Source: an uncultured Thermoleophilia bacterium | GTDB taxonomy: Bacteria > Actinomycetota > Thermoleophilia > UBA2241 | Assembly: GCA_963715985.1 (NCBI GenBank) | Contig: CAVQSP010000014.1 | Location: 512,001 to 576,000, forward strand | Reading direction: 5' to 3' | Length of the DNA: 64,000 nt | Shown here: positions 39,930-61,803 of the stretch, piece after piece | Numbering within the stretch: position 1 is the stretch's first letter | How the letters are laid out: each line of letters opens with the position of its first letter | Made by a program: the position numbers and the translations under genes | Notes under the pieces: model-generated | The model's database searches: none | Told to the model about the DNA's origin: nothing | What the model saw: the letters and a program-made list of their open reading frames with translations, nothing else

Positions 39930-40010
39930 CCGTGCCTGGCGCCGCCTCGTCCTCGCGCACTATCGCGGTGATGGCGTCCTTGAACGGGGCCAGTTGGGAG
40001 CCCCCGGCGC
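39930..40010 (-). mobile_element. Possible IS21 (IstA) transposase remnant
   Basis: 'SQLAPFKDAITAIVREDEAAPGTV' resembles the IstA 'SKLDPFK..I..LL..D...PATV' segment; no other IS parts seen. Confidence 0.25.
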
Positions 40011-40114
40011 TGCCTGCGCGGCGGCTGGGCAAGTCCGGCAGACTCCCGCCGCCCGCTCTTTCTGACGCAGGGTGGCGCAAGCCTTCCCGCGGCGCCGGCG
40101 CGCGTGCGAGGCCG

Positions 40115-41048
40115 TCAGGGTGCCGCGTCTGGCGGAACCGGCGGGCCTTCGCTCCACGAGCCGGTCGATGAGGCGCGGTAGTCGTCCAGCCGCCCGGTGA
40201 CATCGCCCTGACACCGGTACGCCGCCTCCACGGCGAGGAAGAGGAAGACGTGCGTCAGCATGATGTCGCGCTGGTCGTACTGGTCGTCCCAGGCCGCGCG
40301 CATGGCGACCTGCTCGATGGCGCCGTAGAGGCTGTAGGCCATGAGCTCGTCGGAGACCGGGGGAGAGGCTGGCCTGGGCCGCAGCGCGGCGAGGTCGGCG
40401 GCGGGCCCGGCGGCGATGAGGCGCAAGCGCCTCCTGCACGGCGGCGCGGGTCTCCGCGTCTTCCTGAAGGGCCTCCGCGCGCGCCAGGCCGAGCAGGTCG
40501 GGGCTCAGGCGCTGCAGGCCCCAGAACGCGTAGGTCCGCATGATGAGCCGCACGACGGGGTCGGGCTCCTGCGCCAGCGGCGGCTCGATGAGGCCGCTCA
40601 TCCAGCGCACGAACACGTTGAACGACTCGATGAACAGCTGCCGCTTGGTGGCGAATTGCGTGTAGAACAGCGGAGGCGTGACGCCGGCCTCCGTGATGAT
40701 GTCGGCGAGGCGGGTGCGTTTGTACCCCTTGCGCGCGAACTGGCGCGCCGCCGCCTGCAGGATCGCGGCGCGCGTCTCCGCGGCGCGCCGCGCCACGAGG
40801 TCGGGCTCGGCCGCGGTCTGGCGCTCGAGGAGCGGGCGGATGCTCGTCTTGATGGCCTCGAGGTCGGCGCCGGCGTGCTTGAGCCGGCGGATCTCCCCGA
40901 GCAGCTCGACGTGCACATCGCTGTAGAGGGCGCGGCTGGCGGCGGCCTTCTGGGCGGCCGGCAGCAGGCCCTCGCGCACGTAGAAGTAGATCGTGCTGCG
41001 CGGCGTGCTCGTGGCCGCTTCGAGCTCCGTGATCGTGAGCGCCTTCAC
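40115..41048 (-). CDS. MerR-HTH / TetR hybrid regulator; frameshifts near 40425 and 40170
   Basis: 'ITELEAATSTPRSTIYFYVREGLLP...YSDVH' followed by 'TRAAILQAAARQFARKGYKRTRLADIITEAGVTPPLFYTQFATK'. Confidence 0.8.
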
Positions 41049-41222
41049 CGCGATCTCCCTCCGGCGGCGGCTTCTGCGTGACCCGGGTCACGGCGACATT
41101 GACAGGACGGACCGCGTAACTCTAGCATACGAACCAGTGATGTATAGTCCTATAGCAGAGGTCGCTGCTCTGGTGGATGGACCGTCTGCGTGGATGCTCG
41201 AGCGGGGAGGTCCGGGTCTGCC

Positions 41223-41477
41223 ATGAACACCGTGACGATCGACTTCGAGGCGTGCACCGGCTGCAAGACGTGCTACCTGGCCTGCTTCGCCGACGTCATC
41301 CGCTGGGACGCCGAGGCCAAGCGGCCCATCGTCGCGTACCCGGAGGACTGCGTGCGCTGCAACGTCTGCGAGATCAACTGCAAGGATGAGGCGATCAACG
41401 TGGTCGCCGACTGGGACATGGACTTCCCGCCGGTCATCGAGCGCGGCTTCCCGTACACGGTAGGAGGCAAGCGATGA
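41223..41477 (+). CDS. AprB-like 2x[4Fe-4S] ferredoxin
   Basis: CTGCKTCYLACF...YPEDCVRCNVCEINC. Confidence 0.88.
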   Translation: MNTVTIDFEACTGCKTCYLACFADVIRWDAEAKRPIVAYPEDCVRCNVCEINCKDEAINVVADWDMDFPPVIERGFPYTVGGKR

Positions 41478-43188
41478 CCGTCCTCGAGGATCTGGGCCGG
41501 GTCGAGTCCGCCGACGTGCTCGTCATCGGCGGGGGCATCGGCGGGCTCGTTGCCGCGGTGGCCGCCAAGGAGAAGGACCCGGACGCCGACGTGCTGGTCG
41601 TCGAGAAGGCGAGCTCCGGCTGGGCCGGCCAGGCCAACAAGGGCGCCGGCGTGTGGTGGTACCTGGCGCCCGAGGACGATGTGGACCGCTTCGTGCAGTT
41701 CCACGTCGAGCACATCGGCCACTACATCGAGGACCAGGAACTGCTCGCCGACTTCGGCCGCCAGAGCCTGGCCACTCTGGAGCGCATGGACGGATGGACC
41801 GGCAAGTTCCAGCGCCGTGACGACGGGCAGTTCATCCACAAGCGCTTCAAGCCGTTCCTGCCCTGGAGCCTCACGGGCGCGGACCTCGACTTCATGCGCC
41901 CGCTCAAGCGCACCGCCCGCAAGCTGGGAGTGCGCTTCATCGACAAGACGTCGCTCACCGACCTGCTGACCGACGGCGGGCGCGTCGCCGGCGCCGTCGG
42001 GTTCAGTCTGCTGGACGGCAGCCCTCTCGTGGTGCAGGCCCCCGCCGCCGTCATCGCCACCGGCGGCCAGAGTTACCGCATCATGGGCATGTGGAGCTGC
42101 CAGCGCGGCGACGGGCTGGGCATGGCCTGGCGCGCCGGCGCGCAGATGCGCAACGCCGAGTGGGGGCCGTTCGCCCAGCTCGCCGGCAAGAAGGGCAAGG
42201 AGCCGCTCATCGGCTCCGAGGACGCGCTGTACAACGCCTGGCACGAGAAGCTCTCGCCGCGGTTCCGCGACGAGCTCGCGCCCGACGTCTGCGGCATGAC
42301 GAGCGCCGTGTGGTACCAGCAGATGGTGGCCGGCAACGGCCCGCTGGTGACGTTCCACCCAGAGAACTGGATGCTCGCCAACACCACGGAGGACCTGGAG
42401 GGCGGCACCGTGTGGGACCGCCCGGTGGCCATCAAGTTCTGGGAGACGCTCATCAGCCGGGTGCGCAGCGCCGACCCGCCGGGCGCCTTTCTCGAGGTGT
42501 TCCCGGCGGTCCTCGGCGAGCTCTCGCCGATCAAGGTGGATCACGGCATGGCGACGACGGTGCCCGGCCTGTTCGCCTGCGGCAACGCCTGCTACAACGG
42601 CTCCGGCTTGCCCGGCGCCGTGCCGGCCTCGCCCGGGCGCATGCGCGGGTCCGGCCTCTTCGGCGCCACCTGGATGGGCATCCGCGCCGGCGAGTCGGCG
42701 GTGGGCGCCGCCGGCGGCGCACAGGCCGACGCGATGCAGGCGGAAGCGCTCGTACGCGACGCGCTCGCGCCCCTCGAGCGCACGGACGGCGTGCCGGCGA
42801 TGGAGCTGGTGCGCGCCGTCCAAGACGGCCGTGAACCCGGTCGGCTACTCGATCTACAAGAGCGAGGAGCGCATGACCGAGGCGCTCCAGATGGTCCTTG
42901 ACGTCAAGGAGCGCCTCCCCCAAGTCGCGGCCACCGATCCGCACTACCTGGTGGCCGCCCACGACGCCCGCAACATGGCGCTGAGCGCCGAGCTCTTCTA
43001 CCGCACGGCGCTGGAACGCAAGGAGTCGCGCGGCTGGTTCATCCGCGAGGACTACCCCGAGCGCGACGACGCCGAGTGGCTCAAGTGGGTCAACGCCGAG
43101 CCCGACGGCGACGGGATGCGCATCTGGACCGAGGACGTCCCCGTCGCCGACTACCCGTTCCAGCCCGACCGCCCCCGAGAGGAGCTGA
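41474..43188 (+). CDS. AprA/SdhA-superfamily flavoprotein of unknown substrate; frameshifts near 42826 and probably 43175
   Basis: 'DVLVIGGGIGG', 'IATGG', 'GDGLGMAWRAGA', 'TTVPGLFACG', 'RKESRGWFIREDYPERDD'; no covalent-FAD His. Confidence 0.82.
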
Positions 43189-43193
43189 GCCGA

Positions 43194-44058
43194 ATGGCCG
43201 CCACGATGGAACGCCAGCCTCGCCCTCTGACCCCCGAGGAACAGGCGAAGCCCTACGCCAAGTTCTACACGATGGAGTTCCCGGGGCCGGACCCGGCGAC
43301 GGTGGCGCTCATGGCGCGTGACCGCCAGGTCCCGCAGGAGCAGATGCTCATGCCGGAGGACCTCAACAAGCTGCTCGACCCCGGCAACCTTCGAGACCGA
43401 GGTCGGCTGGGGCATGATGGACAACGGCGCCGGCTACATCGCCATGCGCCACGAGATGCCCGGCGTCACCGTCGAGATGGTCGACTGGTGGTTCGCGTGG
43501 CACCCGATCGAAGGCCTGCGCTACCGCATCTGGTACCCGCCGTACCACCTCGGCGTCCACGTCGACGAGTGGGCGCAGCCGCGGCTGCTCGACCCCGGCG
43601 TGCCCGTCCGCGACAAGTGCGAGAAGGTCGTCCACCACGTGACCGAGGACACCGGCGTGGGCACGGAGCACATCGACATCCACTTCCTCACGCCCGAGCA
43701 GATCGGCTTCGACATGAGCCGCTGGCACAAGCCGAACGTGGGCACCTTCGTCGGCGGCTTCGGGTGGAGCGTCAACGAACACCAGCCGCCGGAGATCCCG
43801 GCCGCCCCGGCCATCATGGTCCACTTCATCCGCGAGATGGAGGGCGGCGTCGAGTGGCGCACGCGCTTCTGGATGGGCTACACGATCCTGAACGGCCACC
43901 CGGTCCCCCTGCTGCCGCCGGGCATCCGCGTGCCCGAGGACGCCGTGTGCGGCCTCGCCAACCACAACATCTACGAGTACACACGGCTCAAGTCGCTGCT
44001 CCCGCTGGTCTACGCGGAGCTCGGCGGCACCGTACGTGTGACCGTACGCAGACGATGA
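43194..44058 (+). CDS. Phloretin hydrolase / DAPG hydrolase (PhlG) family, copy 1; frameshift near 43388
   Basis: 'MPGVTVEMVDWWFAWH', 'LRYRIWYPPYH', 'VTED', 'TRFWMGY', 'HNIYEYTRL..LLP'. Confidence 0.87.
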
Positions 44059-44088
44059 CCGTCGCAGCCAGAGGGGAGAGGTGACCGC

Positions 44089-44871
44089 ATGCTCAAGAGC
44101 ATCGTGATGATGGACCTGCCCATCGACGACATCGCGCCGATGGAACGCTGGTACTACGAGTCGCACTCGTCGGAGATCTCGCGCCGGTACGGCCCGTGGC
44201 TGCAGCGCCACGAGAGCTACGTGGCGCTCGACGCGCCCGAGGACGCGCGCCGGTTCGGCTTCTACAACTGGCGCGTCACCGAGACCTACTGGCGCGAGAT
44301 GCCGGAGTCCGGGGCCAAAGGCGCGTACTGCTTCACGCCGGCCCCGGTCTGGAACCCCGTCGCCACCTGCACCGTCCCAGCGCAGCCGGACAACGACTTC
44401 TTCGGCTGGGACGGGTTCTCCACGGACGGCGCCAGCATCCGCTGGTACATCCTGTTCCGGTATCCCCTCGGGGTACGCCTCAAGGACGGCGAGGACTGGT
44501 TCGTCAACGTGCACGCCCCGGAGGTGTGCAGGCAGCCGGGGCTCAAGCGCTTCTTCAGCTACAAGGTCGAGCAGGCGGCGATCCCGCTGCCCGGCATGTG
44601 GCACCCGGACGCCACGCCGCCGCAGGACATGATGATGGTGCAGTGGGACCGCGTGGTGGAGCTCTGGTACCCGAGCTTCAGTGCCTGGCGCAAGGCGGTC
44701 ATCGAGGAGCCACCGGCCTACACGGCACCGGAATGGGCGACCGACGACTTCTACAAGGACGGCCATGCCACGTACCCGTTCTTCAAGCCGGGCGTGGACT
44801 TCGTGAGCACGTTCCTGCTCGAGCGCCCCGCCGACGAGTTCCTGCGCGACACGCGCTACTACCGGCCATGA
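44089..44871 (+). CDS. Bacterial-type chalcone isomerase homolog
   Basis: 'ERWYYESH', 'RFGFYNWRVTETYW', 'DGASIRW...YPLGV...GEDWF', 'WDRVVELWY...W', 'PEWA...YPFFKP' are collinear with Eubacterium ramulus CHI as recalled from memory. Confidence 0.75.
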   Translation: MLKSIVMMDLPIDDIAPMERWYYESHSSEISRRYGPWLQRHESYVALDAPEDARRFGFYNWRVTETYWREMPESGAKGAYCFTPAPVWNPVATCTVPAQPDNDFFGWDGFSTDGASIRWYILFRYPLGVRLKDGEDWFVNVHAPEVCRQPGLKRFFSYKVEQAAIPLPGMWHPDATPPQDMMMVQWDRVVELWYPSFSAWRKAVIEEPPAYTAPEWATDDFYKDGHATYPFFKPGVDFVSTFLLERPADEFLRDTRYYRP

Positions 44872-44932
44872 GCGCGCCGTTCGTGAGCCGCTCGCGTCCC
44901 GTTCCAGCCATCGCCACCCGGAGGTCACGCTG

Positions 44933-45772
44933 ATGGCCGTCAGGACACTCACGCCCGAAGAAGAGGCCAAGCCGTACGCCAAGTACTACCACCGCCCGGT
45001 CACGCCGCCGGACGCGGACATGATCGCGCTGATCCAGCCCGACGTGCAGATCGACCCGGCCCTGGCGCTGCCGCCGGAGCGCATCAGCGACCTGCTCGAC
45101 CCCGGCTACCACGAGGTCGAGACCGGCTGGTGCATCATGCCCAACGGCAGCGGCTACCTGGCCGTGCACAACCGCATGCCCGGCGTGACCGTCGAGATGC
45201 TCGACTGGTGGTTCTGGTGGCACTCCATGGCCAGCGTGCGCTACGGCCTCTGGTACCCGCCGGGCCACTACGGCATCTCGATCAGCAAGAAGTCGCGCGC
45301 CAAGCTCAGTGACCCGAGCGTGCCGGCCAAGGAGAAGATCTACGGCCGCACCGACCACGTGGTCGAGGACATCGGCACGGGCGCGGAGGACATCTACATC
45401 TGCTTCTGCGCCCCCGAGGAGATGGGCTTCGACATGAGCCGATTCCACGCGCCGAACGTCGCGGCCGTGTACGGCGGCTACGGCTTCGACCAGCCGCAGG
45501 GCGCCAAGCCGAGCGACATCCGGGCGCCCGCCATCATGTGTCACTTCATCCGTGAGCTTCCGGACGGGGACGGCATCGAGTTCCGCTCGCGCTTCTGGAT
45601 GGGCTACAAGCTCATCGAGGGGCAGCCCGTGCTCGCCATCCCGCCCGGTGAGTCGGTGCCGGCCGATGTGCCCTACGGCCTCGCCGATCACAACGTCAGC
45701 GAGTACTGCAACCTCAAGTCGCTGCTGCCGGAGATCTGGGCCGAGTTCAAGGACGCCGACCCGGCGCTGTGA
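44933..45772 (+). CDS. Phloretin hydrolase / PhlG family, copy 2
   Basis: 'MPGVTVEMLDWWFWWH', 'WYPPGH', 'VVEDIG', 'SRFWMGY', 'HNVSEY'. Confidence 0.88.
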   Translation: MAVRTLTPEEEAKPYAKYYHRPVTPPDADMIALIQPDVQIDPALALPPERISDLLDPGYHEVETGWCIMPNGSGYLAVHNRMPGVTVEMLDWWFWWHSMASVRYGLWYPPGHYGISISKKSRAKLSDPSVPAKEKIYGRTDHVVEDIGTGAEDIYICFCAPEEMGFDMSRFHAPNVAAVYGGYGFDQPQGAKPSDIRAPAIMCHFIRELPDGDGIEFRSRFWMGYKLIEGQPVLAIPPGESVPADVPYGLADHNVSEYCNLKSLLPEIWAEFKDADPAL

Positions 45773-45794
45773 AGCCGGGCAGGGAGGAACCCCT

Positions 45795-46589
45795 ATGCCA
45801 ATGAAGCTGATGGCGGCGTCACGCCGCCGGCCCGGGCTGACCAGGGCCGAGTACTTCCGCTACATCGAGCACTACCACGGCACCGTGGCGCGCCTCGAGC
45901 GCTTCAAGATCGAGAAGTACATCCAGAACCACGTGATCGACGGCGCGTTCGGCGTGATCTCCGACGCGGGCGGCCACAAGAACAAGGTCGCCGACAGGGA
46001 CGCCGTCGTCGAGCTCCACTTCGACAGCTTCCGCGACATGCTGGCCACCCTCGAGCCCGAGGGCGTGACCGTGTCGCGCGCCAACCAGGACGGCCGTTTC
46101 TTCGCCGACGAGCCGACCAACATCATCGTGATGGCGGAAGAGACCGAGCTGCCCGTCGCCAAGCCCATGCCGGACTTCAACCCCGGGCTCGGCGAGCCGG
46201 GCAGGGGTGCGCTCAAGGTGATGCAGTACATCATGCGCCGGCCCGAGGTCTTCCCCCAGGACTTCCACCGGCTGTGGCGCCGCGCCCACGACGAGGCTCT
46301 GGCGGCGAGCCCCTACGCCAACGACATGTTCCGCAAGATCGTCGTGAGCAAGCGCTCGCGCGTGAACGACAACGACGCCGCGGCCCGCGCGCACTTCAAG
46401 ATGGTCGACCCGCCGGTGTACGACCTCGTGGTGTCGTTCGTCCTCGACAGCATCGAGCAGGCCGGCGCCTTCCGGCAGTACTTCGACGCCATCACCAGCA
46501 GCCCGCTGGTGTTCGCCGACTGGTCGGAGTCGTTCTTCCTCTACGTGAGGCCGGTGCGGATCATCGACGACGCGCCGCCGAAGGAGTAG
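45795..46589 (+). CDS. Two-domain EthD protein
   Basis: 'RRRPGLTRAEYFRYIEHYHG...KYIQNH...DAVVELHFDS' plus a second degenerate domain; GGGAGG RBS. Confidence 0.78.
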   Translation: MPMKLMAASRRRPGLTRAEYFRYIEHYHGTVARLERFKIEKYIQNHVIDGAFGVISDAGGHKNKVADRDAVVELHFDSFRDMLATLEPEGVTVSRANQDGRFFADEPTNIIVMAEETELPVAKPMPDFNPGLGEPGRGALKVMQYIMRRPEVFPQDFHRLWRRAHDEALAASPYANDMFRKIVVSKRSRVNDNDAAARAHFKMVDPPVYDLVVSFVLDSIEQAGAFRQYFDAITSSPLVFADWSESFFLYVRPVRIIDDAPPKE

Positions 46590-46593
46590 TGCC

Positions 46594-47502
46594 ATGCCGG
46601 ACATGACCAAGCCTGAATGGGCGGCCCAGAAGACCTACGACGAGAACCGGGCGTTCAGCAAGACCAAGGCCACCCGTCCGCCGCTCACGCCCGAGGAAGA
46701 GAAGCGCCCGTTCGCCAAGTACTACTACGACGAGATCCCGCAGCCGGATCCCGTGCACTACGCGATCATGGACGAGCCGATGGACCCGGCCGACGCGTTC
46801 TACCCGGAGGACATCAGCCGCCTCCTCGACGTGCCGGCGCTCGAGGCGGGGGTGGAGATCGGATGGTGCAACCTGCCCAATGGGGCCGGCTACATCGCCA
46901 ACCGGATCCACTACCCGGAGTTCACCGCCGACATGGTCGACTGGTGGTTCGCGTGGCACCCGCTCGAGGACCTGCGGTACCGCATCTGGTACCCGCCGCA
47001 GCACGCCGGCATCATGCTGAGCCCCATCGACCGTGCTCGCATCCTCGATGACTCCATCCCCAACCGTGAGAAGAACTGGGGCGTCGTCCACAACGTGACT
47101 GAGAACTGCGACAACGGCTACGAGAACATCGACATCGCCTTCCGCTCGCCGGCCGACGCGGGCTTCGACATGGAGAAGTTCGACAAGGTGGCGGCGACCA
47201 TGGCGGGTGGCATGGGCTGGGCCGTGACGGTCGACAAGACCGACGAGTCCATCACCGCGCCGGCGCTCATGGTCCACATGTTCTACGACGCTCCGGAGGG
47301 AGGGCTGATCCACCGCACGCGCTTCTGGATGGGCTACCGCTTCAACGAGGAGGACAAGCCCGAGCTGTGCCTGCCGCCTGGCGTGAGCGTGCCGGTCGAG
47401 GCCGTCCAGGGCCTGGCGCGGCACAACGTCAAGGAGTACACGCGGTGGCGCGAGTTCCTGCCGAGGATCTACGCGGAGCTGGGCCCGGGGATGTACTGCT
47501 AG
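46594..47502 (+). CDS. Phloretin hydrolase / PhlG family, copy 3
   Basis: 'MVDWWFAWHPLEDLRYRIWYPPQH', 'VTEN', 'TRFWMGY', 'HNVKEY'. Confidence 0.88.
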   Translation: MPDMTKPEWAAQKTYDENRAFSKTKATRPPLTPEEEKRPFAKYYYDEIPQPDPVHYAIMDEPMDPADAFYPEDISRLLDVPALEAGVEIGWCNLPNGAGYIANRIHYPEFTADMVDWWFAWHPLEDLRYRIWYPPQHAGIMLSPIDRARILDDSIPNREKNWGVVHNVTENCDNGYENIDIAFRSPADAGFDMEKFDKVAATMAGGMGWAVTVDKTDESITAPALMVHMFYDAPEGGLIHRTRFWMGYRFNEEDKPELCLPPGVSVPVEAVQGLARHNVKEYTRWREFLPRIYAELGPGMYC

Positions 47503-47614
47503 GGGTATCCCGTCGGGCATCGACGATTGAGTTGACCGCGTGAGGGCGGGGGCCGGGGCCGGCGTGCAGGACGTGGCCGCCCGGCCCGTGGCAAACCACG
47601 GCGAGCCGGGCATG

Positions 47615-48532
47615 CTAGGGTGTCAGCCAGCCGTGGGTGAGGTCCGGCGGCCGCTTCTCGGCACGTTCCGGCAGCGGCTCGCTCACGGGCCAGATGAGCT
47701 CCGTGGCGAAGTCCGCGGGGTCGGCCGTGTCCCGCTCGTCGCGGACGAAGCGCATCCGCAGCCGGCCGCGGAGGCCGCGGCCGCTGTCCGCGAGCCATTC
47801 GAGCTGTCTGGCGTAGGCGAAGCGGTAGCCGTCCTCGTAGAGACCTGAGAAGACGCTTCGCGCGAAGCGGCCGCCCTCGAGCTCGACGAGGTCCGCGGCT
47901 GGTGTGGTGGTCGCCTCTCCGGCCACGGGGAGGCAGAGCTCGTAGCGGAGCACGGTCTCGTCCCCGCCCGCGAGACCTTTGTCCGTCGGGTCGAGCAGTA
48001 CCACGTGTTCTCTCCCCGTCGGGGTGAGGCCGGACTCGGTGGCTCTATCGGCGAGCACGGCGGCGAGATCGATGTAGGACTCGTGGAACTCCGAGCGGGC
48101 CATCGTCCCCGACCAGCGCAGGCAGCGCTCCGGCGCGAGGTCGATGAGTTCGACGGCGGGAGCCGCGCGGAACATGGCGTCGAGCTCGTCGATCCTGCTC
48201 AAGAGCCGCAACGCCGCATCCAGGCGGGCCTGCTCCTGCTCGAGCCGCTGCTTCTGCTGCGTGAGGGTCTCTTCGAGACGATCCGTCGCAGCCGCGTCGA
48301 TGTACAGGCGCATCTCGTTCAGGGGTACGTCGAGCCGCCTGAGAAGGCGGATCATCTCGGCTGCCCGGATCGAGTGGACGTCGTAGGATCGGTATCCCGT
48401 CGCCTCGTCGACGTGCGCGGGCAGCAGGAGCCCGCGATCGGCGTACAAGCGAAGGGCACGATGGCTCAGCCCGGTCATGCGCGAGAAGATGCCGATCGGC
48501 ATCAGTCGCTCATCACCCCGTGGCGACCGCAT
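47615..48532 (-). CDS. MerR family regulator with GyrI-like effector domain (BmrR type)
   Basis: 'IGIFSRMTGLSHRALRLYADRGLLLPAHVDEATGYRSY', C-terminal 'TELIWPV'. Confidence 0.88.
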   Translation of the reverse strand: MRSPRGDERLMPIGIFSRMTGLSHRALRLYADRGLLLPAHVDEATGYRSYDVHSIRAAEMIRLLRRLDVPLNEMRLYIDAAATDRLEETLTQQKQRLEQEQARLDAALRLLSRIDELDAMFRAAPAVELIDLAPERCLRWSGTMARSEFHESYIDLAAVLADRATESGLTPTGREHVVLLDPTDKGLAGGDETVLRYELCLPVAGEATTTPAADLVELEGGRFARSVFSGLYEDGYRFAYARQLEWLADSGRGLRGRLRMRFVRDERDTADPADFATELIWPVSEPLPERAEKRPPDLTHGWLTP

Positions 48533-48628
48533 CTCCCGTCGTCCTTCCTGGTCCATGACGCCACTCTAGTCTCGGACGCGGAAGGTGGCCATCTTGCCGT
48601 CCGTCACCGCCCGCACGCGCGTCGCTCG

Positions 48629-48659
48629 TTGACTCTGACGCGGGTCAGTGTTCGAGACT
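48629..48659 (+). promoter_or_regulatory. MerR-type promoter TTGACT-N19-GAGACT with internal dyad
   Basis: ACTCTGAC-GCGG-GTCAGTGT dyad overlapping -35 and the spacer; divergent from the merR-family gene. Confidence 0.55.
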
Positions 48660-48732
48660 CTCTGAGCCGCGTCGCGCGCCGGCGCCGAGCACGCACTGTC
48701 TATCGCTACGGCCACTGTTCCAAGGGAGGCTG

Positions 48733-50248
48733 ATGAGTGTGAACGACATCGTCAATGGGCTCGCCGCGCTCGTCGGCCGCGACTACGTCGCGGCCGACCC
48801 GGCGAGCCTCCAGGAGTACGCGGGCGACGAGAGCTTCGTCCCGCGGCTGACGCCGTGGGCCGTGGCCCGGCCGGGCTCGGCCCAGGAAGTGCAGAAGGTC
48901 GTCGCCTGGGCCAACGAGACGGCGACGCCGCTCGTGCCGGTCAGCTCCGGCGGGCCGCACTTCCACGGCGACACGGTGCCCAGCGTGACGGGCGCCGTGA
49001 TGCTCGACCTGCGGCGGCATGGACAGGATCCTGCGTATCGACCGGCGCAACCGCATGGCGGTCATCGAGCCGGGCGTCACGTATCCCCAGCTGCAGGCCG
49101 CCCTGGCCGAGCAGGGCATGCGCGTGACGCCGCCGCTGCTGCCGCGGGCGAACAAGTCGGTCGTCGCGAGTCTGCTCGAGCGCCAGCCGACGCTCATCCC
49201 GCGCTACAACTTCCACCTGCCCGAGCCGCTGCGCAGCTGCGGCGTGGTGTGGGGAAACGGCGAGACCATGTTCACCGGCGAGGCCGGCAGCGGCCCCGAG
49301 TCGCTGGAGGCGCAGTGGCAGGCCGGCGGCGTGCAGGCCGACCCCAAGGGCCCGGCGCAGACCGACTTCTTTCGCCTGCTCACGGGCGCGCAGGGGACGA
49401 TGGGCGTCGTCACGTGGGCGGCGGTCAAGTGCGAGCTGCTGCCCGCCGCCCACGAGTTCGCGTTCGTGACGGCCGCCGACCTCGACGACCTGGTCGACCT
49501 CACCTACCGGCTCGACCGCATCCGGCTCGGCGATGAGGTGTTCATCGTCAACGACGCCTACCTGGAGCGGCTGCTTGCCTCGCAGCATGGGGGCAAGGTC
49601 GATCCCGACGAGCTGCCGGCGTGGACGCTCGTCCTTGGGTTCGGCGGGCGCGAGCACTTCGCCGCGGAGCGGGTCGCCGTCCAGAAGAAGGACGCGGCAT
49701 CGCTGGCCGGGGAGTTCGGCCTGACGCTGCAGCAGTCGATCCCCGGTGCGCTGACCGGTGACATCGCCGCCGCGATCGGCGCCTGCTGCGAGACGCCATG
49801 GAAGCTGGCGGCGGAGGGCGCCTGCGCCGACGTGTTCTTCGTGACCACTCTCGAGGAGGCGCCCGCGTTCGTCGAGATCGCGCACATCGTGGCCGACGGG
49901 TACGGGTACGCCGCGGAGGACGTCGGCGTGTACATCCAGCCCCAGCACCAGGGCGTGACGCACCACGTCGAGTTCAGCCTGCCCTACGACGGCTCGGACG
50001 CGGCCACCCGGGAGGACATGAAGGGCCTGTCCGACGACCTCGCCGCCAATCTCATGGCCGCCGGCGCCTACTTCAGCCGGCCGTACGGCTCGTGGGCTCA
50101 GCCCGTCTACAACCGCGATGCCGCCTCGCGCGACGCCCTGCGCAAGGTCAAGGCGATCTTCGACCCGGCCGGGAGTCATGAACCCCGGCAAGCTGTGCTT
50201 CGGGGCGCCGGATCGCGCCCGCGCGCGCTCGTCGAAAAGGAGGCCTGA
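48733..50248 (+). CDS. FAD-binding oxidoreductase (VAO/PCMH/GlcD superfamily); frameshifts near 49018 and 50172
   Basis: 'ARPGSAQEVQKVV', 'VPVSSG', 'DLRRMDRILRID', 'IEPGVT', 'GAQGTMGVVT', 'KAIFDP...NPGK'. Confidence 0.82.
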
Positions 50249-50249
50249 C

Positions 50250-51570
50250 ATGGCCCTCACCGACTATCGCGCCGACGCCATGCGCTGCACGCGCTGCAGC
50301 TACTGCAAGTGGATCCCCTTCGACCTCGTGAAGAGCCACCGCTTCGCCAAGGGCTGCCCATCGATCGAAGCCGGCAAGTTCCACGCCTACTCGGCCGGCG
50401 GCCGGCTCGTCACCATGCGCTCGCCTCCTCGACGGCCGCAGCGAGGTCACCGACCAGGTCGTCGACATCGCCTTCCGCTGCCAGCTCTGCGGCAACTGCG
50501 ACGTGGCCTGCAAGATGTGCCGCTACGACATGGAGCCCATCCTCGCGCTGCGCGAGCTGCGCGCGCACCTGGTCGAGATGGACCGGGTGCCGGAGTCGTA
50601 CCGGCCGCTCATCGAGCGCACCCGCGCCGGCCTCGCCGGCAAGGGCAAGACCCCGGCCGAGCGCAACGCCTGGGCTGAAGGGCTGGGCCTCGTGGACCCG
50701 ACCGTCGAGCCCGTCGACGTCGTCTTCTTCGCGGGCTGCAAGTACTCCCTCGAGGAGTCGCTGCGGGAGACCGTGCGCACGCAGGTGCGCGTGCTGCAGG
50801 CCGCCGGCCTCAGCGTGGGCATCATGCCCGAGGCCGGCTGCTGCGGCGGCCTCGCCGACAAGATGGGCTATCGTGACGAGGCCGCCAGGCCGGCACGAAG
50901 ATGCTCGAGCAGTGGGCCGCCGCCGGTGTGAAGACGGTGGTCACGCCGTGCGCCGACTGCCGGCACACGTTCACGCGCGCCTACCCGAAGTACGAGGGCG
51001 CGTCGGAGGACATGCCGGAGATCCTGCACACCGTCGAGTGCGTCGACAGGCTCGTGAAGGACGGGCGGCTCGAGCTCACCGCGCCCGTCCCGCTCACCGT
51101 CACCTACCACGACCCCTGCAACCTCGGTCGTCAGGGCGAGCCCTACACGCAGTGGGAAGGGGTCGAGAAGAAGATCTACGGCCAGGCGGTCGTCTACGAC
51201 CCGCCGCGACCGCGCCACAACGGCGCCAACGGCGTCTATGACGCGCCGCGCGACGTGCTCGCCGCCATCCCCGGCGTGGAGCTCGTCGAGATGGAGCGCA
51301 GCCGCGAGGCCGCCTGGTGCTGCGGCGCCGGCGGCGCCTGCCGCGAGGCGTTCCCCGAGTACTCGGCCGCGACGGCCGCAGAGCGCGTGGAGGAGGCGGC
51401 GTCGACCGGTGCTGAGGCGCTCGTCACCGCCTGCTCGCGCTGCGAGCTCAACTTCGCGGAGGCCGTGGCCGCCGACACCGCGTCGGGCGGCCCCGGCGCC
51501 GATCTGCAGGTCCACGACGTGCTGGAGCTCGTCGCGCTCTCCGCCGGCATCAGGGAAGGAGGCCTCATGA
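50250..51570 (+). CDS. GlcF/HdrD-like Fe-S protein with CCG domains; frameshifts near 50425, 50893 and probably 51553
   Basis: CTRCSYC, CQLCGNCDVAC, 'GCCGG', 'VTYHDPCNLGR', 'CCGAGG', 'TACSRC'. Confidence 0.82.
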
Positions 51571-53269
51571 GCCCGAGCTACGCCAAGCCCACCACGCCGG
51601 CCGAGACGGCCGCCGCCTCGGCGCAGATCACCGACGAGGCCTACCGCGCCCTCGAGGACATCGTCGGCGCCGACAACGTCTCGCGTGACGCCGCCATCCT
51701 CGACACGTACGCGTTCCAGTGGCTCGCCGAGCTGGTGCGCCCCGACCAGAGCCACTACATGCCGCGTCCGGCGGCCGTCGTGCTGCCCGGATCGACCGAA
51801 GAGGTCCAGGCGATCGTCCGCCTGGCCAACAAGTACGGCCTGAAGGTGAAGCCGCACGGGACCGGCTGGTACCACTGGTCCGGTCCCATCAAGGACTCCG
51901 ACGCGACGCTGCAGCTCGACCTGCGCCGCATGGACGCCATCGTCGAGATCGACGAGCAGAACATGTACGCGGTCGTCGAGCCGTACGTGATCGCCGCGCA
52001 GCTGCAGGCGGAGATCCTCCCGCTGGGCCTCAACCTCAACATCCCCGGCGTGGGCTGCTCCAGCTCGATCGTCGCCAGCGCCTGCGCTTACCACGGCGCC
52101 GGTCCGGACACCTACTACATGGGCGGCAACGCCGAGAACGTGCTCGGCATGGAGTGGGTCACGCCCGAGGGCGAGATCGTCCGCACCGGCTCGCTCGGCT
52201 AGCGGCGACGGCTGGTTCTGCAGCGAGGGCCCCGGCCCGTCCGTGCGCGGCATCTGCCGGGGCACGCTCGGCAGCCGCGGCGGCCTTGGCGTGTACACGA
52301 AGTGCGCGGTCAAGCTCGCCCCGCACTTCGGCCAGACCGAGTGGAACGTCGAGGGCACGTTGCCCGCGTACCGCCTGCCCGTGCACGAGAACCTGCGCGT
52401 CTACACGCTCGCGGTCCCGGACTGGGACGCCTGGGCGGACATCTACTACAGGATCTACGACAACGAGATCGGCTACATCTTCCACCGCCAGTTCAACCTC
52501 GCCGGCGCCGACCTCGGCCCCGCGTTCTGGCTCATGTACAACGACGCATCCAAGGTCGCTCTCGGACGTGCCTGAGCTGGTCGCCGATCCGGAGGTCGCC
52601 GCGCTCACCGAGGAGATGCGCATCAGCTTCCAGCTCATCCTCGCAGGGCGCTCCAAGGACGACATCGAGCTGCAGGACAAGATCCTCGACGCCATCCTCG
52701 AGGAGGTCGGCGGCTGGAAGGTCGAGCGCTTCTGCGAGCAGGATATGGCCGAGTTCACCAACGTCTACCTGCAGCGGCTCGGCCACAAGCACGTCAACTT
52801 CGTCTGGGCCGGCGGCTACATCGGCAGCTGGATGCAGTTCGGCACGCCGGACTGGGTCAAGGGCTACGTGCCCACGGCCATCGACGGCCTTGCGCGGGAC
52901 GCCAAGGACGGTCTGCTCGTGCAGTGCGGGGGAGACGCGATGATGGGCTCCGGCAGCGGCATCCCGCTGGGCGGCGCCACCGGCCTCGAGCAGTTCGTCA
53001 GCTACGACCCGGACGACCAGGCCTCGACCAAGGCCGGCATCAAGCACATGGAGGACGCGGTCAAGGATGCCGCCTCCATCAGCTACCCGCCGGGCAAGGA
53101 GTTCCTCTACCTGCAGATCGGCTGGACCGACGAGCAGATCTGGGACGCGCTCGCGCACGCCAAGCAGCCGCAGGTGTTCCACTACCAGCGGCAGATCAAG
53201 GAAGCATTCGACCCCAACGACGTCGGCGACAGGATGTATCCCACGCTGCCGGCCGACCGGGGAGAGTGA
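51567..53269 (+). CDS. Second FAD-binding oxidoreductase (PCMH-like); frameshifts near 52199 and 52555
   Basis: 'PAAVVLPGSTEEVQAIVRLANKY', 'LDLRRMD', 'GMEWVTPEGEIVRTGSLG...GPGPS', 'IKEAFDPN'. Confidence 0.82.
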
Positions 53270-53298
53270 CCCTCAGGCGCTGACGCGGCGCCAGTTCC

Positions 53299-53340
53299 GG
53301 AGCGGGGCGGCCCGCACGTCCCCCAGGGCCGCCCCGCTCC
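53299..53340. terminator. 15-bp hairpin between convergent genes
   Basis: GGAGCGGGGCGGCCC ... GGGCCGCCCCGCTCC. Confidence 0.55.
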
Positions 53341-53412
53341 GCACGATCCTGGCGTGAGACCCCGCGCCCGATGCCGCGTCGCGGCGCGGGCACCGACGAG
53401 CCGAAGGGCGCG

Positions 53413-54531
53413 TCAGTCCCCGCCAGGGAGCCGCAGCCTGACGAGGTGGCTGCCCACCACGGCAGCCAGCATGCCGAGAAGCTGCGGTTCCCCGCTCCGG
53501 GCGGGTCTCGAAAGCGAGAGGGTCAGCGTCAGCTCGACAGGACCCGAGGCGTCGGTCGCGGTCAGCACGTCCGCACCCTTCAGGGTGAGTCGGCGGCGGC
53601 TCCTTTCTCCCTCTTCCACGCCCTCAGCGGCTTCGCCGGCGCGGCTTCTGGAGAAGCCGGCGCTCATGCCACCGGCCGCGGCGACGCAGCTCACGGCGGC
53701 GAAGGTCTCGCAGGCGGACCGAGCGGCGGCCTCCAGGAGGCCGCCGATGTCGGCGGCTCTGCCGAGGGCCGCGACGGTGTCGCCGGCCACGTCGATGGCC
53801 GCGCAGATCTCCTCGATCTCGCGAGTGGCGGCTCTCGCGTCGGAGTATGTCTGGGCGTTGTGCAGGGCGACCGCTGCCTGCCCCGCGATCCCACTGCAGA
53901 TCCTCAGCTCCTGCCGCGAGTAGCGGCGCTCGCGGAGGTGATCCATCAGTTCGAGCAGGCCGATCGAGTGACCGCCGTAGACCATCGGCACCATGAGGAG
54001 GCTCTTGTCTCCGTCTCGGGCAAGCTCTCGCAGCTCGTCCGGGTCCGCGGCGGGATCGCTGAGATTGACGACCGCCGTGACCTGCTCTTCGAGGACATGG
54101 CGCGTGAGCGGGTAGCGCGAGAGCGCGTAGGTCCCCCGGTCGGGCAGACGACGGCCGCCGTCGTCGAAGTCGGCGAGCATCGTCACCGTTTGGGACAGGT
54201 CGTCGTAGGCAGAGATGGCGCAGAACTGGCAGTCCATGAGGCGCGTGAGTCGCTTCGCTATCTCCTTCAGCAGGTCGGTCAGCTCGAGTCTGCTGACCAG
54301 CGCCAGGGACGTCTCGAGCAGCGTGTCGACCTCGCGCTCGCGGGCCCGGCGGGCGGCCATGTGGTTGCTGTCCCCGATCTGTTGGGCGAGCGCCTCCACG
54401 TCTTCTTCACGGATGCGCCTGTGCCCTCCGGGGGTCCGCGTGCACGGCAGAAGACCGCTGGCCGTCCATCGGCGGACCGTGTGGGGCGCCACTCCGAGCC
54501 GCAACGCCGCGCGCTGCACATTGAGGTACAT
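53413..54531 (-). CDS. Excisionase/BldC-like HTH fused to a GAF domain (sensor-regulator)
   Basis: 'YLNVQRAALRLGVAPHTVRRW..SGLLPC.RTPGGHRR', GAF 'SLLMVPM...IGLLE...QAAVALHNA'. Confidence 0.8.
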   Translation of the reverse strand: MYLNVQRAALRLGVAPHTVRRWTASGLLPCTRTPGGHRRIREEDVEALAQQIGDSNHMAARRAREREVDTLLETSLALVSRLELTDLLKEIAKRLTRLMDCQFCAISAYDDLSQTVTMLADFDDGGRRLPDRGTYALSRYPLTRHVLEEQVTAVVNLSDPAADPDELRELARDGDKSLLMVPMVYGGHSIGLLELMDHLRERRYSRQELRICSGIAGQAAVALHNAQTYSDARAATREIEEICAAIDVAGDTVAALGRAADIGGLLEAAARSACETFAAVSCVAAAGGMSAGFSRSRAGEAAEGVEEGERSRRRLTLKGADVLTATDASGPVELTLTLSLSRPARSGEPQLLGMLAAVVGSHLVRLRLPGGD

Positions 54532-54712
54532 CTACCACCTCTCGCTTCGAAAAGTGTCAGGTTAGTTGAAGTTCTCGTCAGCACCTCTGTCAAGACCGTT
54601 GAGGAGATAGTCCTGTAAATCGGCGTGAAGCGTGACACGATTCGTCAAGAAACCCGCAGCCATTGATTCAAGTCGCGGAGGCTTGGGTGGCTGCTCTGGA
54701 AAGGTGTGAGTC

Positions 54713-55918
54713 ATGCGAGTACTGCAGTTGGGCGTTGGTTCCGTCGGCGAAGTGACGGCGCGCACCGTAGCCACGGAGCCCGAGGTGACCTCGGTCGTCC
54801 TCGCCGACATCGATGAGTCGCGGCTGGCCGCCGTGGCCTCCAGGCTTCCTGAGGGCAAGGCGACGACACTGCCGCTCGATGTGCGCGACAAGGATGCGCT
54901 CGTCAGAGCGTTGTCGGAGGTCGATCTCGTCATCAACGGCCTCATCCCCGAGGTCAACCTCGACGTCATGGCGGCCTGTCTGGAGGCCCGTACGAACTAC
55001 CTCGACATGGCCGCGGCCGGGCCACGTGACATCGTCGGCACCGCCGACGTCGACGAGGAGCTGGCGCTGCACGACGAGTTCAAGAAGGCCGGACTGACGG
55101 GTCTGGTCTTCTTCGGCATCGACCCCGGCGCGAGCGACGTCTTCGCGCGCAGCCTGTACGACCAGTTCGACACGGTCGAGCGCCTCACGGTGCTCGACGG
55201 CGACAACTCCAGCGCCGAGGGCGTCGACTACGCGCCGAGCTTCTCGCCGACCACCATGGTCGAGGAGTGCCTGATCCTGCCGCCCCACGCCTTCGAGAAC
55301 GGCAAGAGCATCCGCCGCACCTCGCTCTCGAAGAACTTCGACTTCACCTTCCCGGAGCCGGTCGGGCAGCTCACGGTGTGGAACGTCGACCACGAGGAGT
55401 CGCAGCTGATGCCGCTCTTCCTCGGCGACAAGGGCCTCAAGAACGCCGACTTCTTCATCGCCCTCGACCCGGACTGGGCGAACCTGCTGCTGGCCTGGCG
55501 TCGCCTCGGATTCGACCACAACAAGGAGATCGAGTTCGAAGGCGCCCGCTTCCGGCCGCTCGACCTGCTGGTCTCGCGCCTGCCCAAGTCGGTCGACCTC
55601 ATCGGCAAGATGCACGGCGCCGTCTGCGTCGGCACGCTGGCCGAGGGCACGATCGGCGGGAAGCGCGTGCGGCGCTTCATGTACCAGATCACGTCGCACG
55701 ACCAGGCGTTCGCGGAGCACGGCGTTCAGGGCACCGGCTGGCAGACAGGTGTGCCCGCCGCCTGCGCCGGCATCATGCTGGCGAAGGGGCTCGCTCCGAC
55801 GAACGGCGTCTATGCGCCCGAGCAGATCGACCCGGCGCCGTTCCTCGAGCTCATGACGAAGCACGGCACGCCCTGGGGTGTCGTAGACCTGCCCGCGGAC
55901 GAAGAACTGCCGATCTGA
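54713..55918 (+). CDS. Saccharopine dehydrogenase family oxidoreductase (carboxy(nor)spermidine synthase-like)
   Basis: GxGxxG 'LGVGSVG', 'NYLDMA', 'GIDPG', 'VDHEE', 'QTGVPAA', 'GVYAPEQIDP'. Confidence 0.82.
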   Translation: MRVLQLGVGSVGEVTARTVATEPEVTSVVLADIDESRLAAVASRLPEGKATTLPLDVRDKDALVRALSEVDLVINGLIPEVNLDVMAACLEARTNYLDMAAAGPRDIVGTADVDEELALHDEFKKAGLTGLVFFGIDPGASDVFARSLYDQFDTVERLTVLDGDNSSAEGVDYAPSFSPTTMVEECLILPPHAFENGKSIRRTSLSKNFDFTFPEPVGQLTVWNVDHEESQLMPLFLGDKGLKNADFFIALDPDWANLLLAWRRLGFDHNKEIEFEGARFRPLDLLVSRLPKSVDLIGKMHGAVCVGTLAEGTIGGKRVRRFMYQITSHDQAFAEHGVQGTGWQTGVPAACAGIMLAKGLAPTNGVYAPEQIDPAPFLELMTKHGTPWGVVDLPADEELPI

Positions 55919-55939
55919 GACCGAGTCGGGGGGCGGAAC

Positions 55940-57354: not shown

Positions 57355-57387
57355 GTGTCCGCGCACGCTATGAAACGGGGGAGAACG

Positions 57388-59439: not shown

Positions 59440-59488
59440 GCCACGACGTCGCGCCCTGACGGGCGCTCGAGGCCGGGGAACCCGACGC

Positions 59489-59856: not shown

Positions 59857-60079
59857 TTGAACGCCATCCAGATCGACTTCGACGCCTGCACCGGCTGTCA
59901 GACGTGCTACGAGGCCTGCTTCATGGACGTCTTCCGCTGGGACGCCGCCGCGGAGAAGCCCATCGTCGCCTATCCGGAAGACTGCGTGGAGTGCAACAAG
60001 TGCGAGCTCGAGTGCCCGGAGGAGTGCGTCACGGTCGATCCCCGACTTCGCCGGCATGTACTGGCCGCAGGTGGTGTGA
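59857..60079 (+). CDS. Second AprB-like ferredoxin (TTG start; frameshift near 60036)
   Basis: CTGCQTCYEACF...YPEDCVECNKCELECP; GGAGG RBS. Confidence 0.82.
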
Positions 60080-60080
60080 C

Positions 60081-61803
60081 GTGGCGACGCTGGAATCACT
60101 CGGCACCGTGCTCTCCGCCGACCTCCTGATCGTCGGCGGCGGCATCGCCGGCCTCGCCTGCGCCATCCGCGCCAAGGAGGTCGATCCCGAGGTCGACGTG
60201 CTCGTCCTCGACAAGGTCGTCTCCGGCTGGGGCGGCAAGGCCAACAAGGGCGGCGGCAACATCGTCTTCATGGACCCCGCCGACGGCATCGACACCTTCC
60301 TCGACTTCCACCTGCACAACGTCGGCGAGTTCCTCGAGGACCAGGAGCTCCTGCGCGACTTCGCCAACGAGTCGCGCGGCAACCTCGAGCGCCTCGAGAG
60401 CTGGGGCGTGCACATCTACCGCGACGAGGCCGGCGAGCCCAAGTACGTGCGCTGGCTGCCCGAGCAGCCGTGGCGCATGGCCGTCCTCGACCAGGACCTC
60501 ACGCTCAACATGGCCAAGCACGCGCGCCAGCTCGGCGTGCGCTTCCGCGACCGCGTGGAGATCGTCGACCTGCTCAAGGACGGCGACGCGCGTCTGCGGC
60601 GCCGTCGGCTTCGGCATGCTCGAGGGCGAGTGCATCATCGTGCAGGCCGGCGCCGTCGTGCTGGCCAACGGCAACCAGTGCTTCAAGCTGATGCCGCGCT
60701 GGTCCAGCGCCGGCGGTGAGGGCATCGCCGCCGCCTACCGCGCCGGGGCCGCGATGCGCGGCGCCGAGTTCGGCAACTTCATCAACTGGGTGTTCACCGA
60801 TACCAAGGAAGTCTGCCAGGGCGCCGAGGACGTGCTCTACAACAGCAAGGGCGAGAACATCTCCAAGCGCGTGCGCCCCACCCTCGAGTCCGACGTGGCC
60901 TCCAAGGAGGTCGTCGAGTGGTGGCGCGAGATGCAGGCCGGCAACGGCCCCATCTGCGCCAACATGGCGGAGAACTACGTGAACAACGAGATCGTCCCCG
61001 CCTTCCACGAGGACAAGCTGGCCGTGCGCCCGGTCAGCATGAAGTTCTGGGGCCTGACGATCGGCAAGGCCATGGCCGCCTCCACGGTGCGCGGCCCCAT
61101 GCAGCCGGTGATGCCGGGCCTCAACGCCGAGCTCTCGCCGCTCAAGGTCGACCACGAGATGGCGACCAGCCTGCCCGGGCTCTTCGCCATCGGCGACGCC
61201 TGCTATGCGGGCTCCTGCCTCGCCGGCGCCGTGCCGGCTCCCCCCGGGCGCATGCGCGGCTCCGGCCTCGGCTTCGCCACCTTCTCCGGCGTGCGCTGCG
61301 CCCCGGCGGCGGTGGCGGCGGCCAGAGCCGGGGCGGCGACGCCCGACGCGGCGCAGGCGGAGGCGCTCAAGGCGCGCGTCTTCGCGCCGCTCGGGCGCAG
61401 CGGCATGGCGGCCCCCGAGCTGGTGCACGCGGTGCAGGACGTCATGGCGCCCGTGGGCTACAGCATCTACAAGAGCGCCGAGCGTATGAACGAGGCGCTC
61501 GAGAAGGTGCTGGCGCTCAAGGAGCAGGTGCCGCGGCTCGCCGCCCCGGACCCGCACTACCTGGCCGCCTGCCACGTCGCCGAGGCCATGGTCCTCGGCG
61601 CCGAGCTGTTCTACCGCGCCTCCCTCGCTCGCGAGGAGTCGCGCGGCTGGCACCTGCGCGAGGACTTCCCGGAGCGCGACGACGCCGGCTTCCTCAAGTG
61701 GATCGAGCTGCGCGACGCCGGCGGCGAGATGGCGGTGTCGCTGCACGACGTGCCGATCGAGAGGTATCCCGTGCAGGCAGACGGGAGCGAGGTCCCGGCT
61801 TGA
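60081..61803 (+). CDS. Second AprA/SdhA-superfamily flavoprotein, paralog of 41474; frameshift near 60590
   Basis: 'DLLIVGGGIAG', 'GWGGKANKGGG', 'ELSPLKVDHEM', 'PGRMRGSGL', 'REESRGWHLREDFPERDD'. Confidence 0.82.

Follow-up and report, generated by a model that had tools for sequence, protein, structure and literature searches.

The 64,000-nucleotide stretch of DNA analysed here (hereafter the window; contig CAVQSP010000014.1, positions 512,001 to 576,000, from an uncultured Thermoleophilia bacterium) carries an operon headed by a ferredoxin and a flavoprotein, a pair that probably carries out a reduction step of oxygen-free flavonoid breakdown. The host genome is a metagenome-assembled genome (MAG) whose 22 contigs add up to 4.35 Mb, with a completeness of 88.8% and a contamination of 7.3%. 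The operon region lies within a genome of 68-70% G+C, and near-identical sequence was found mostly in wetland and soil metagenome runs. Seven genes follow each other on one strand with tight spacing, and Pfam, open reading frame (ORF) and tblastn comparisons agree with the order that the first-pass annotation of the window had given them:

41223..41477, + strand: 2x[4Fe-4S] ferredoxin, 84 aa (Fer4, E 2.6e-8), the presumed electron-entry subunit
41474..43188, + strand: flavoprotein of the SdhA/FrdA/AprA fold, ~570 aa when read as in its relatives (FAD_binding_2, 7.5e-24; Succ_DH_flav_C, 1.4e-18)
43194..44058, + strand: phy1, of the DAPG-hydrolase/phloretin-hydrolase family (PF18089, 5.7e-63 on the genome)
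44089..44871, + strand: bacterial chalcone-isomerase-like (CHI-like) protein (Chalcone_N, 7.1e-9, 36.5 bits against a cut-off of 25)
44933..45772, + strand: phy2 (DAPG_hydrolase, 1.3e-71)
45795..46589, + strand: tandem EthD-domain protein (PF07110, 4e-13, two EthD stretches)
46594..47502, + strand: phy3 (DAPG_hydrolase, 5.3e-63)

The ferredoxin stop overlaps the flavoprotein ATG at 41474, and an AGGAG ribosome-binding site lies 9 nt 5' of the phy1 start. While the gene order stood, the intactness of the operon did not, as the flavoprotein and phy1 are both frame-broken in the window, which the annotation had not seen.

The hydrolase part of the operon is clear in its family assignment. PF18089 has three matches in the genome, all of them in this operon (scoring 241, 213 and 213 bits where 22.7 are required), and the same family was found in none of 14 control genomes. 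The protein phy1 is 50-51% identical to phy2 and phy3, and among solved structures phy2 matched the phloretin hydrolase of M. abscessus (5xey, 6e-38) and PhlG (3hwp, 5.8e-28). Seven His and Glu columns (H103, H118, H147, E151, H210, H257 and E261) are invariant or nearly so in 41 Phy sequences, and the Zn-binding residues of the enzyme may be among them. The CHI-like gene is the sole PF18232 match in the genome and was aligned to the CHI of E. ramulus (3zph/4d06) at 6.4e-11 over three stretches, with a His opposite His33, the catalytic residue of that enzyme. Because the identity to E. ramulus CHI is low, the substrate of the CHI-like protein may differ. For the tandem EthD protein no solved relative was found by sequence search; an EthD-phy pair is also present in loci of Holophagales and Acidobacteria (L062, L067 and L072).

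An intact ortholog of the flavoprotein (L024:10080-11798, 573 aa) had 451 relatives at E <= 1e-10 among the candidates scored, all with generic names only. Against solved chains the family profile matched mycobacterial Sdh (4.5e-43), E. coli FrdA (8e-39), archaeal PAPS reductase (9e-39) and AprA (2.7e-38). FAD-binding, capping and C-terminal helical domains are all present according to Pfam (PF00890 and PF02910) and to the AlphaFold2 model (pLDDT 87.2, pTM 0.91), and the top Foldseek matches of this model were 8a8o_A, FrdA and AprA (TM 0.73-0.81, identity 16-24%), which is in line with the SdhA/AprA fold proposed earlier from the letters. In SdhA and FrdA, the His of the S-H-T motif forms the covalent 8-alpha-FAD linkage, and the H-P-T motif and the His of HYxMGG bind the dicarboxylate. 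The annotation had noted that these are missing from the flavoprotein, and the profile alignment with solved SdhA/FrdA chains agrees: W-A-G of WAGQANKGAG stands opposite S-H-T of E. coli FrdA and A-H-T of 7d6v, EWGPF.. takes the place of FHPT, and GELSPIKVD that of HYVMGG. The Arg equivalent to R390 of FrdA is R389, which is invariant in 53 sequences. The ferredoxin has eight Cys in two CxxCxxCxxxC motifs, and its closest solved chain is the delta subunit of 2-oxoglutarate oxidoreductase, with PsaC also among its matches, and not AprB.

Comparison with the known systems of this fold places the pair apart from each of them. With SdhA/FrdA of complex II/QFR (7d6v, 1kf6, 3p4p) the flavoprotein shares the three-domain fold (TM 0.77-0.81), the GDG and RxESRG motifs and the Arg equivalent to R390, but it is only 20-24% identical to them and lacks the three motifs above. 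Its partner is an 84-aa ferredoxin instead of a three-cluster SdhB, and there are no membrane anchor genes. In AprAB (1jnr) and in archaeal PAPS reductase (8a8o, whose chain A was the top Foldseek match at E 6.8e-32) the likeness is in the architecture, a small 2x[4Fe-4S] subunit gene immediately upstream and a non-covalent FAD. The label AprAB-like, which had been given to the pair, holds for this architecture, whereas membership in the family does not: the flavoprotein is equally far from AprA and from SdhA/FrdA, the models for aprA (TIGR02061, 38.1 against 641.75 bits) and aprB (TIGR02060, 21.7 against 135.65 bits) stay far under their cut-offs, and there are no sulfate-reduction genes around. 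No NCBIfam equivalog reached its cut-off with the N-terminal part of the window protein, the best being PRK08275 with 105.9 against 587 bits. The superfamily includes soluble FrdA-type reductases of enoates and enones other than fumarate, such as the urocanate reductase UrdA and the cardiac glycoside reductase Cgr2, cases in which anaerobes have recruited the fold to reduce the C=C of other conjugated compounds. They belong to the flavocytochrome-c3-type branch, of which the solved members 1qo8 and 1d4c match the family at 7e-12 to 2e-9, compared to 1e-38 to 1e-43 for SdhA/FrdA/AprA, and we know of no UrdA/Cgr2-type reductase that is paired with a C-C hydrolase.

The association with Phy, part of the chi/phy neighbourhood that the annotation had proposed to measure, was followed in a profile-based scan of species genomes, which gave 70 loci and, with the window, 85 flavoprotein copies with at least 400 aligned residues. 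The loci come from about ten lineages: Thermoleophilia, other Actinomycetota, Desulfobacterales, Holophagales and other Acidobacteria, a Sandaracinaceae MAG, Dehalococcoidales, Spirochaetia, Lachnospiraceae, Oscillospiraceae, Clostridium, Moorellaceae and a Vibrio. A ferredoxin gene lies directly upstream of the flavoprotein in 80 of the 85 copies. A phy gene is found within 300 bp on the same strand in 39/85, and within 1.5 kb on either strand in 43/85, one of the latter (L034_3957) being doubtful with its phy 1171 bp away on the opposite strand in a neighbouring module. As 15 of the 43 phy-linked copies are orthologs from one genus, clades weigh more than rows. On the flavoprotein tree the phy label changes seven times, at least five of these changes being forced by well-supported branches, compared to a mean of 28.9 in shuffled labels, and none of 500 shuffles was as low. 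The phy-linked clades are those of Thermoleophilia (15/15 and 2/2), Actinomycetota/Desulfobacterales (6/6), Firmicutes and Spirochaetia (16/17) and Acidobacteria/Actinomycetota (3/3), and the Phy tree has the same groupings. Since PF18089 is absent from all 14 control genomes, chance adjacency of the flavoprotein and phy is very unlikely. Full-text searches of the literature found no description of a ferredoxin/SdhA-like pair beside phy; the supplementary neighbourhood tables of PMC10470551, which lay outside these searches, may show the genes, and Fig. 8 of the same paper lists DAPG_hydrolase in its clusters.

In four short-read Oscillospiraceae MAGs the flavoprotein and Phy are joined in frame (L080, L081, L082 and L093). 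The fusion ORF of L081 (9977-12415) is 813 aa long and holds FAD_binding_2, Succ_DH_flav_C and DAPG_hydrolase, those of L082 and L093 are stop-free for 808-809 aa, and that of L080 is open to the contig end. Two database proteins (P0037 and P0087) likewise have PF18089 together with SdhA domains. Thermoleophilia assemblies from long reads show similar joins (L032, L037 and the window itself), which were treated as indel artefacts and left uncounted. Structure prediction for the unfused flavoprotein and phy1 of the window lineage gave a complex score of 0.65, with the best control at 0.29. Among solved complexes 58 of 80 reached this mark, and among mismatched pairs 2 of 110; as own alignments were used here, these counts apply only roughly. 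The runs had at least 96% of their contacts in common, with a partner pLDDT of at least 88, and they placed the phy1 interface on the capping domain of the flavoprotein (residues 253-259, 287-288, 294 and 338). The complex is a prediction that supports binding of Phy by the flavoprotein.

The module also stands in one operon with phloroglucinol pathway genes in several phyla. In the anaerobic phloroglucinol pathway, according to PMC10470551, SDR, 3HCDH, Cyclase and BKACE are the families of PGR, TfD, DPGC and TAL. L071 has the genes in the order cupin-SDR-3HCDH-Cyclase-BKACE-Phy-ferredoxin-flavoprotein, and in L081 it is SDR-3HCDH-Cyclase-BKACE-ferredoxin followed by the flavoprotein::Phy fusion. 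In 13 of the 85 copies, three or more of the four pathway genes are encoded within 8 kb of the flavoprotein; six of these copies are phy-adjacent and seven are not. In the genome of the window, a 3HCDH-BKACE-SDR-thiolase-Cyclase set (TfD-TAL-PGR/DPGC families) is found just upstream of the window (contig 14, 503-510 kb; L110:5063-11813) and a second phloroglucinol-family set on contig 13 (L111), each cluster being headed by an IclR regulator. We considered the flavoprotein as a phloroglucinol reductase and found this less likely, since PGR-type SDR genes are present in the same operons and the flavoprotein is not needed there to reduce phloroglucinol. It looks like the flavoprotein and Phy together are a feeder into the phloroglucinol pathway, and we are highly confident of the functional coupling of the reductase to Phy on this route.

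The bond that is reduced is a separate question. To our knowledge, OYE-type Fcr is the only type of reductase known for the step before phloretin hydrolase. The annotation had seen no such old yellow enzyme (OYE) gene in the window, and this observation extends further: PF00724 (Oxidored_FMN) has no match in the operon proteins nor in the whole 88.8%-complete genome, while 13 of 14 control genomes were positive in the same search. The fcr and phy genes of C. butyricum are neighbours and have been proposed to be transcribed as a single unit (PMC11868195). The lack of an OYE gene for the step in this genome and the fcr-phy precedent in that source fit the simplest reading, which is that of the annotation, with a chalcone or flavanone as the substrate. 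The likeness to Fcr/enoate reductase of Eubacterium ramulus (a flavanone- and flavanonol-cleaving reductase with an OYE-type FMN domain and an FAD/NADH domain) would be in the proposed reaction, flavanone or chalcone to dihydrochalcone, and it is seen in the position beside phy, as in the C. butyricum fcr-phy pair of the same source. In contrast, the flavoprotein is not homologous to Fcr and has no Oxidored_FMN domain, it is fed by a separate 2x[4Fe-4S] protein where Fcr has a built-in NADH domain, and at some loci it coexists with OYE genes.

In the mechanism that we propose, the ferredoxin and the flavoprotein would form a two-subunit reductase in which the 2x[4Fe-4S] protein passes electrons to a non-covalent FAD, with an active site that has lost its dicarboxylate-binding residues. 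The CHI-like or EthD proteins would open the flavanone, the flavoprotein would reduce the enone of the chalcone (or of the opened flavanone) to a dihydrochalcone, and Phy would split this into phloroglucinol and an arylpropionate. The reductase and the Phy-type C-C hydrolase would cooperate as a two-step feeder, probably in physical contact, and the phloroglucinol would then enter the PGR-DPGC-TfD-TAL pathway encoded 45 kb upstream. We infer the direction of the reaction (reduction), the substrate (chalcone or flavanone) and the electron donor. That the flavoprotein is a chalcone or flavanone reductase making the dihydrochalcone substrate of Phy seems to us an even chance. In evolutionary terms, an SdhA/FrdA/AprA-superfamily flavoprotein and its ferredoxin would have been drawn into the reduction of polyphenols and linked to a C-C hydrolase. 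More tentatively, and with somewhat less confidence than for the substrate, we propose that the pair founds a new class of chalcone/flavanone reductases that cleave the flavonoid C-ring. This class would be non-homologous to Fcr and form a channelling complex with Phy, to which it is fused in Oscillospiraceae. In wetland soils, rumen and gut it would be a main oxygen-free way for flavonoids into the phloroglucinol pathway, with paralogous clades acting as further polyphenol reductases together with other hydrolases.

Several observations weigh against this proposal. The substrate is assigned by guilt by association. The neighbourhood of phy is strong in the census, whereas that of chi, which had been suggested together with it, is weak, as chi lies within 3 kb in only 13 of the 85 copies and mostly in one genus. 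In 42 of the 85 copies there is no phy nearby, and in some of these the neighbours are phloroglucinol genes without a hydrolase (L069), IOR-PTA-kinase genes (L079, L070, L072) or a Peptidase_S15/CocE-like hydrolase (L039, L045). With half of the family without phy, the chemistry of the family appears broader than chalcone reduction. The argument from a missing OYE step holds for this genome and not beyond it: among 40 further genomes in the genus, 22 have PF00724 genes, with 7/10 for those that carry the operon compared to 6/15 without it, and in G006 an Fcr-type OYE of 722 aa is encoded ~26 kb upstream of the module. OYE genes also stand beside the module in some Firmicutes, and long Fcr-type ones lie 0.6-7.5 kb from it in L093 (at 622 bp), L068, L077 and L057, so that the flavoprotein may do a different step there. 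Both the flavoprotein and phy1 of the window are, moreover, frameshifted. The flavoprotein family is a set of related reductases, and the bond reduced by the window enzyme is read from its context.

These points lead to the strongest alternative, in which the module is the same and the bond is different, so that the flavoprotein would reduce another polyphenol upstream of the hydrolase. Flavones or flavonols could be reduced at C2=C3, which is the FLR step; an isoflavone or dihydroisoflavone could be reduced en route to a ketone of the O-DMA type; and a third candidate is the ring-opened diketone of the auronol alphitonin, which CHI makes from taxifolin. An Fcr-type OYE beside the module, in the four loci just named, would leave a second reductive step to fill, and the many clades of the family with differing neighbours also favour this reading, as does the paralogous pair in the window itself. 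Indolepyruvate (IOR)-type 2-oxoacid oxidoreductases stand near L072, L079 and L070 and in the window at 29408-33381, as expected if an arylpyruvate were released, and a passage of PMC12203004 states that the enzyme cleaving alphitonin is unknown. However, the tightest and most widespread partner of the flavoprotein is Phy, up to the point of fusion, which fits best if the product is the direct substrate of Phy, and between an FLR step and Phy, an isomerase and another reductase would have to act. We regard a different bond as unlikely, though as the most serious of the alternatives to chalcone or flavanone reduction.

The frame breaks raise another possibility, less likely again, that the flavoprotein and phy1 of the window are true pseudogenes in an operon that this organism is losing, independent of the role of the family in other hosts. 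In the window the FAD domain and the Succ_DH_flav_C domain of the flavoprotein are in different frames, the frame of the latter is stop-free into the phy1 start, and the rest of phy1 is in the third frame. The frames were compared in an alignment with six relatives of 84-92% protein identity, in all of which flavoprotein and phy1 are intact and in frame. Compared to these, the window has three additional bases, a G at 42827-42828, one base within 43161-43176 and a C at 43388-43389, none of them present in any of the six. The insertion within 43161-43176 hides the flavoprotein TGA at 43186-43188, so that the reading frame continues into phy1, and the extra C breaks phy1. Three frame-breaking one-base insertions inside 1.7 kb that are absent from six relatives are what decay could leave behind. 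Nevertheless, among the differences listed for 41100-61000, short-read contigs of four runs lack single window bases at 50175, 52203, 60036 and 60586/60588, and a contig of one run lacks one base at 43166, all of these sites being inside genes; for the insertions at 42827-42828 and 43388-43389 the six relatives are the sole comparison. Other genes of the same operon are frameshifted in low-contig MAGs (chi and phy2 in L020, a relative from the genus), and before and after every break the proteins keep an amino-acid identity of 84-92% to the relatives. Being rich in single-base insertions, the window resembles an uncorrected long-read assembly, and the three insertions in the flavoprotein and phy1, judged from such alignments, are probably assembly errors instead of real inactivation.

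A further alternative, slightly less probable than decay, keeps the pathway and puts the flavoprotein after Phy, as an Fe-S-fed reductase of the phenolic ring or of the acid product. It would act on rings not accepted by the NADPH-dependent PGR, for example those of the resorcinol type that come from 5-deoxyflavonoids, or it would reduce hydroxycinnamate to arylpropionate as an electron sink. Some family members do lie beside DPGC-TAL-PGR-TfD genes without a hydrolase (L069), and FrdA-type enzymes classically reduce alpha,beta-unsaturated carboxylates, with the R390-equivalent Arg kept here. A ferredoxin-dependent resorcinol reductase is mentioned in part of PMC10470551. The operons of L071 and L081 already have a PGR-type SDR and no extra resorcinol-branch genes, which speaks against a second ring reductase, and the fusions and the predicted Phy contact are compatible with an action after Phy and do not require it. 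We also know of no case in which Phy cleaves chalcones to cinnamates. The idea that the flavoprotein is an ordinary fumarate reductase/succinate dehydrogenase, APS reductase or L-aspartate oxidase, which the common fold and database names such as 'succinate dehydrogenase/fumarate reductase flavoprotein subunit' would suggest, can practically be set aside, given the equivalog scores far under their cut-offs, the missing motifs, the separate SdhA-like genes in the same genome and a neighbourhood of polyphenol catabolism.

Anaerobic flavonoid breakdown bears on the turnover of carbon in peat and wetlands, where it touches the 'enzyme latch' debate, and it shapes which products of dietary polyphenols reach the host. 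The conserved and sometimes fused reductase-hydrolase module is a concrete candidate for this process in Thermoleophilia, other Actinomycetota, Desulfobacterales, Acidobacteria, Spirochaetia, Lachnospiraceae and Oscillospiraceae, and its recognition would improve the annotation of genes that are currently labelled as succinate dehydrogenase or fumarate reductase. In case chalcones are not the substrate, the coupling to Phy and to the phloroglucinol operon would still mark another reaction of polyphenol catabolism.

The operon is flanked by regulators on both sides, and a second copy of the pair lies further downstream in the window:

39960..41087, - strand: MerR/TetR-type regulator, divergent to the operon (TetR_N, 1.5e-14; MerR_1, 6e-12)
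47615..48565, - strand: MerR/GyrI-like regulator on the 3' side of the operon (MerR_1, 2.1e-10; GyrI-like, 2e-5)
59857..61782, + strand: paralogous ferredoxin and flavoprotein pair, 45-48% identical to the operon pair (tblastn), not phy-adjacent

The fused MerR/TetR type of regulator is also found beside the module in L026 and L057. The paralogous pair belongs to a tree clade without phy adjacency, is itself frame-broken near 60036 and 60586, and is followed by branched-chain-type ABC permeases (61880-64000). In G020 (L026:662-3480) the corresponding paralog is followed by an EthD protein, and the main operon comes 9 kb downstream of it. Between the operon and the paralogous pair, genes for a FAD_binding_4 (GlcD/PCMH-type) protein and a CCG-domain Fe-S protein (49001-53269, + strand) are split into several ORFs; the bases at 50175 and 52203, absent from the short-read contigs of four runs, are further single-base insertions of the assembly. 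The same FAD_binding_4/CCG-domain genes come after phy3 in G020 (L026:15728-20537).

With its pyrogallol-transhydroxylase-like molybdoenzymes, an IOR-like gene, another EthD gene, ABC transporters and the operon, the window is a polyphenol island. Three molybdopterin enzyme sets were found (12974-16648 and 19809-23077 on the - strand, 24200-27780 on the + strand), some of them apparently fragmented, with an NrfD-like membrane protein among them (18047-19039). One set has an AhtL-like first domain of pyrogallol hydroxytransferase and small subunits with Fer4_11/CarboxypepD_reg domains, and from these domain matches the molybdoenzymes may be transhydroxylases or dehydroxylases for trihydroxybenzenes. 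At 29408-33381 (+ strand) an ORF of 1116 aa combines a CoA-ligase (ADP-forming) with an indolepyruvate/2-oxoacid:ferredoxin oxidoreductase (POR_N, TPP_enzyme_C, Fer4) and is followed by a POR gamma gene; IOR-type genes are neighbours of family members in L072, L079 and L070 as well. An arylpyruvate intermediate, for example from the hydrolysis of ring-opened alphitonin, would fit such genes.

Other neighbours recur in parts of the family. In one Actinomycetes clade (L039:9812-13509, L045:11574-13502, L074:6369-8096) the flavoprotein is followed by a Peptidase_S15/PepX_C (CocE/NonD-type) hydrolase and there is no Phy; in L039 this pair is in an operon with BKACE, SDR, 3HCDH and Cyclase, and it forms a second reductase-hydrolase pairing. 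A gene of the nitronate-monooxygenase/FabK family (PF03060) lies 30-1180 bp from the flavoprotein in L061, L073 (11700-12668), L078 and L090 (Lachnospiraceae, Parasporobacterium). It was considered as the flavone reductase FLR and dropped, as FLR has a flavodoxin/WrbA-like fold according to part of PMC7862272. Two loci assigned to 'Deltaproteobacteria bacterium MAG248' (L036 and L064) encode proteins 88-96% identical to those of the Thermoleophilia operon, and it is likely that the label or the binning of this MAG is wrong. Finally, genes for a B12-binding corrinoid protein and a URO-D-type methyltransferase lie near family members (L026:20538-21269, L073:7745-8770, L072:19654-20775 and L094:5524-6747), Holophaga foetida included, which points to O-demethylation of methoxylated aromatics as a further function of these islands.

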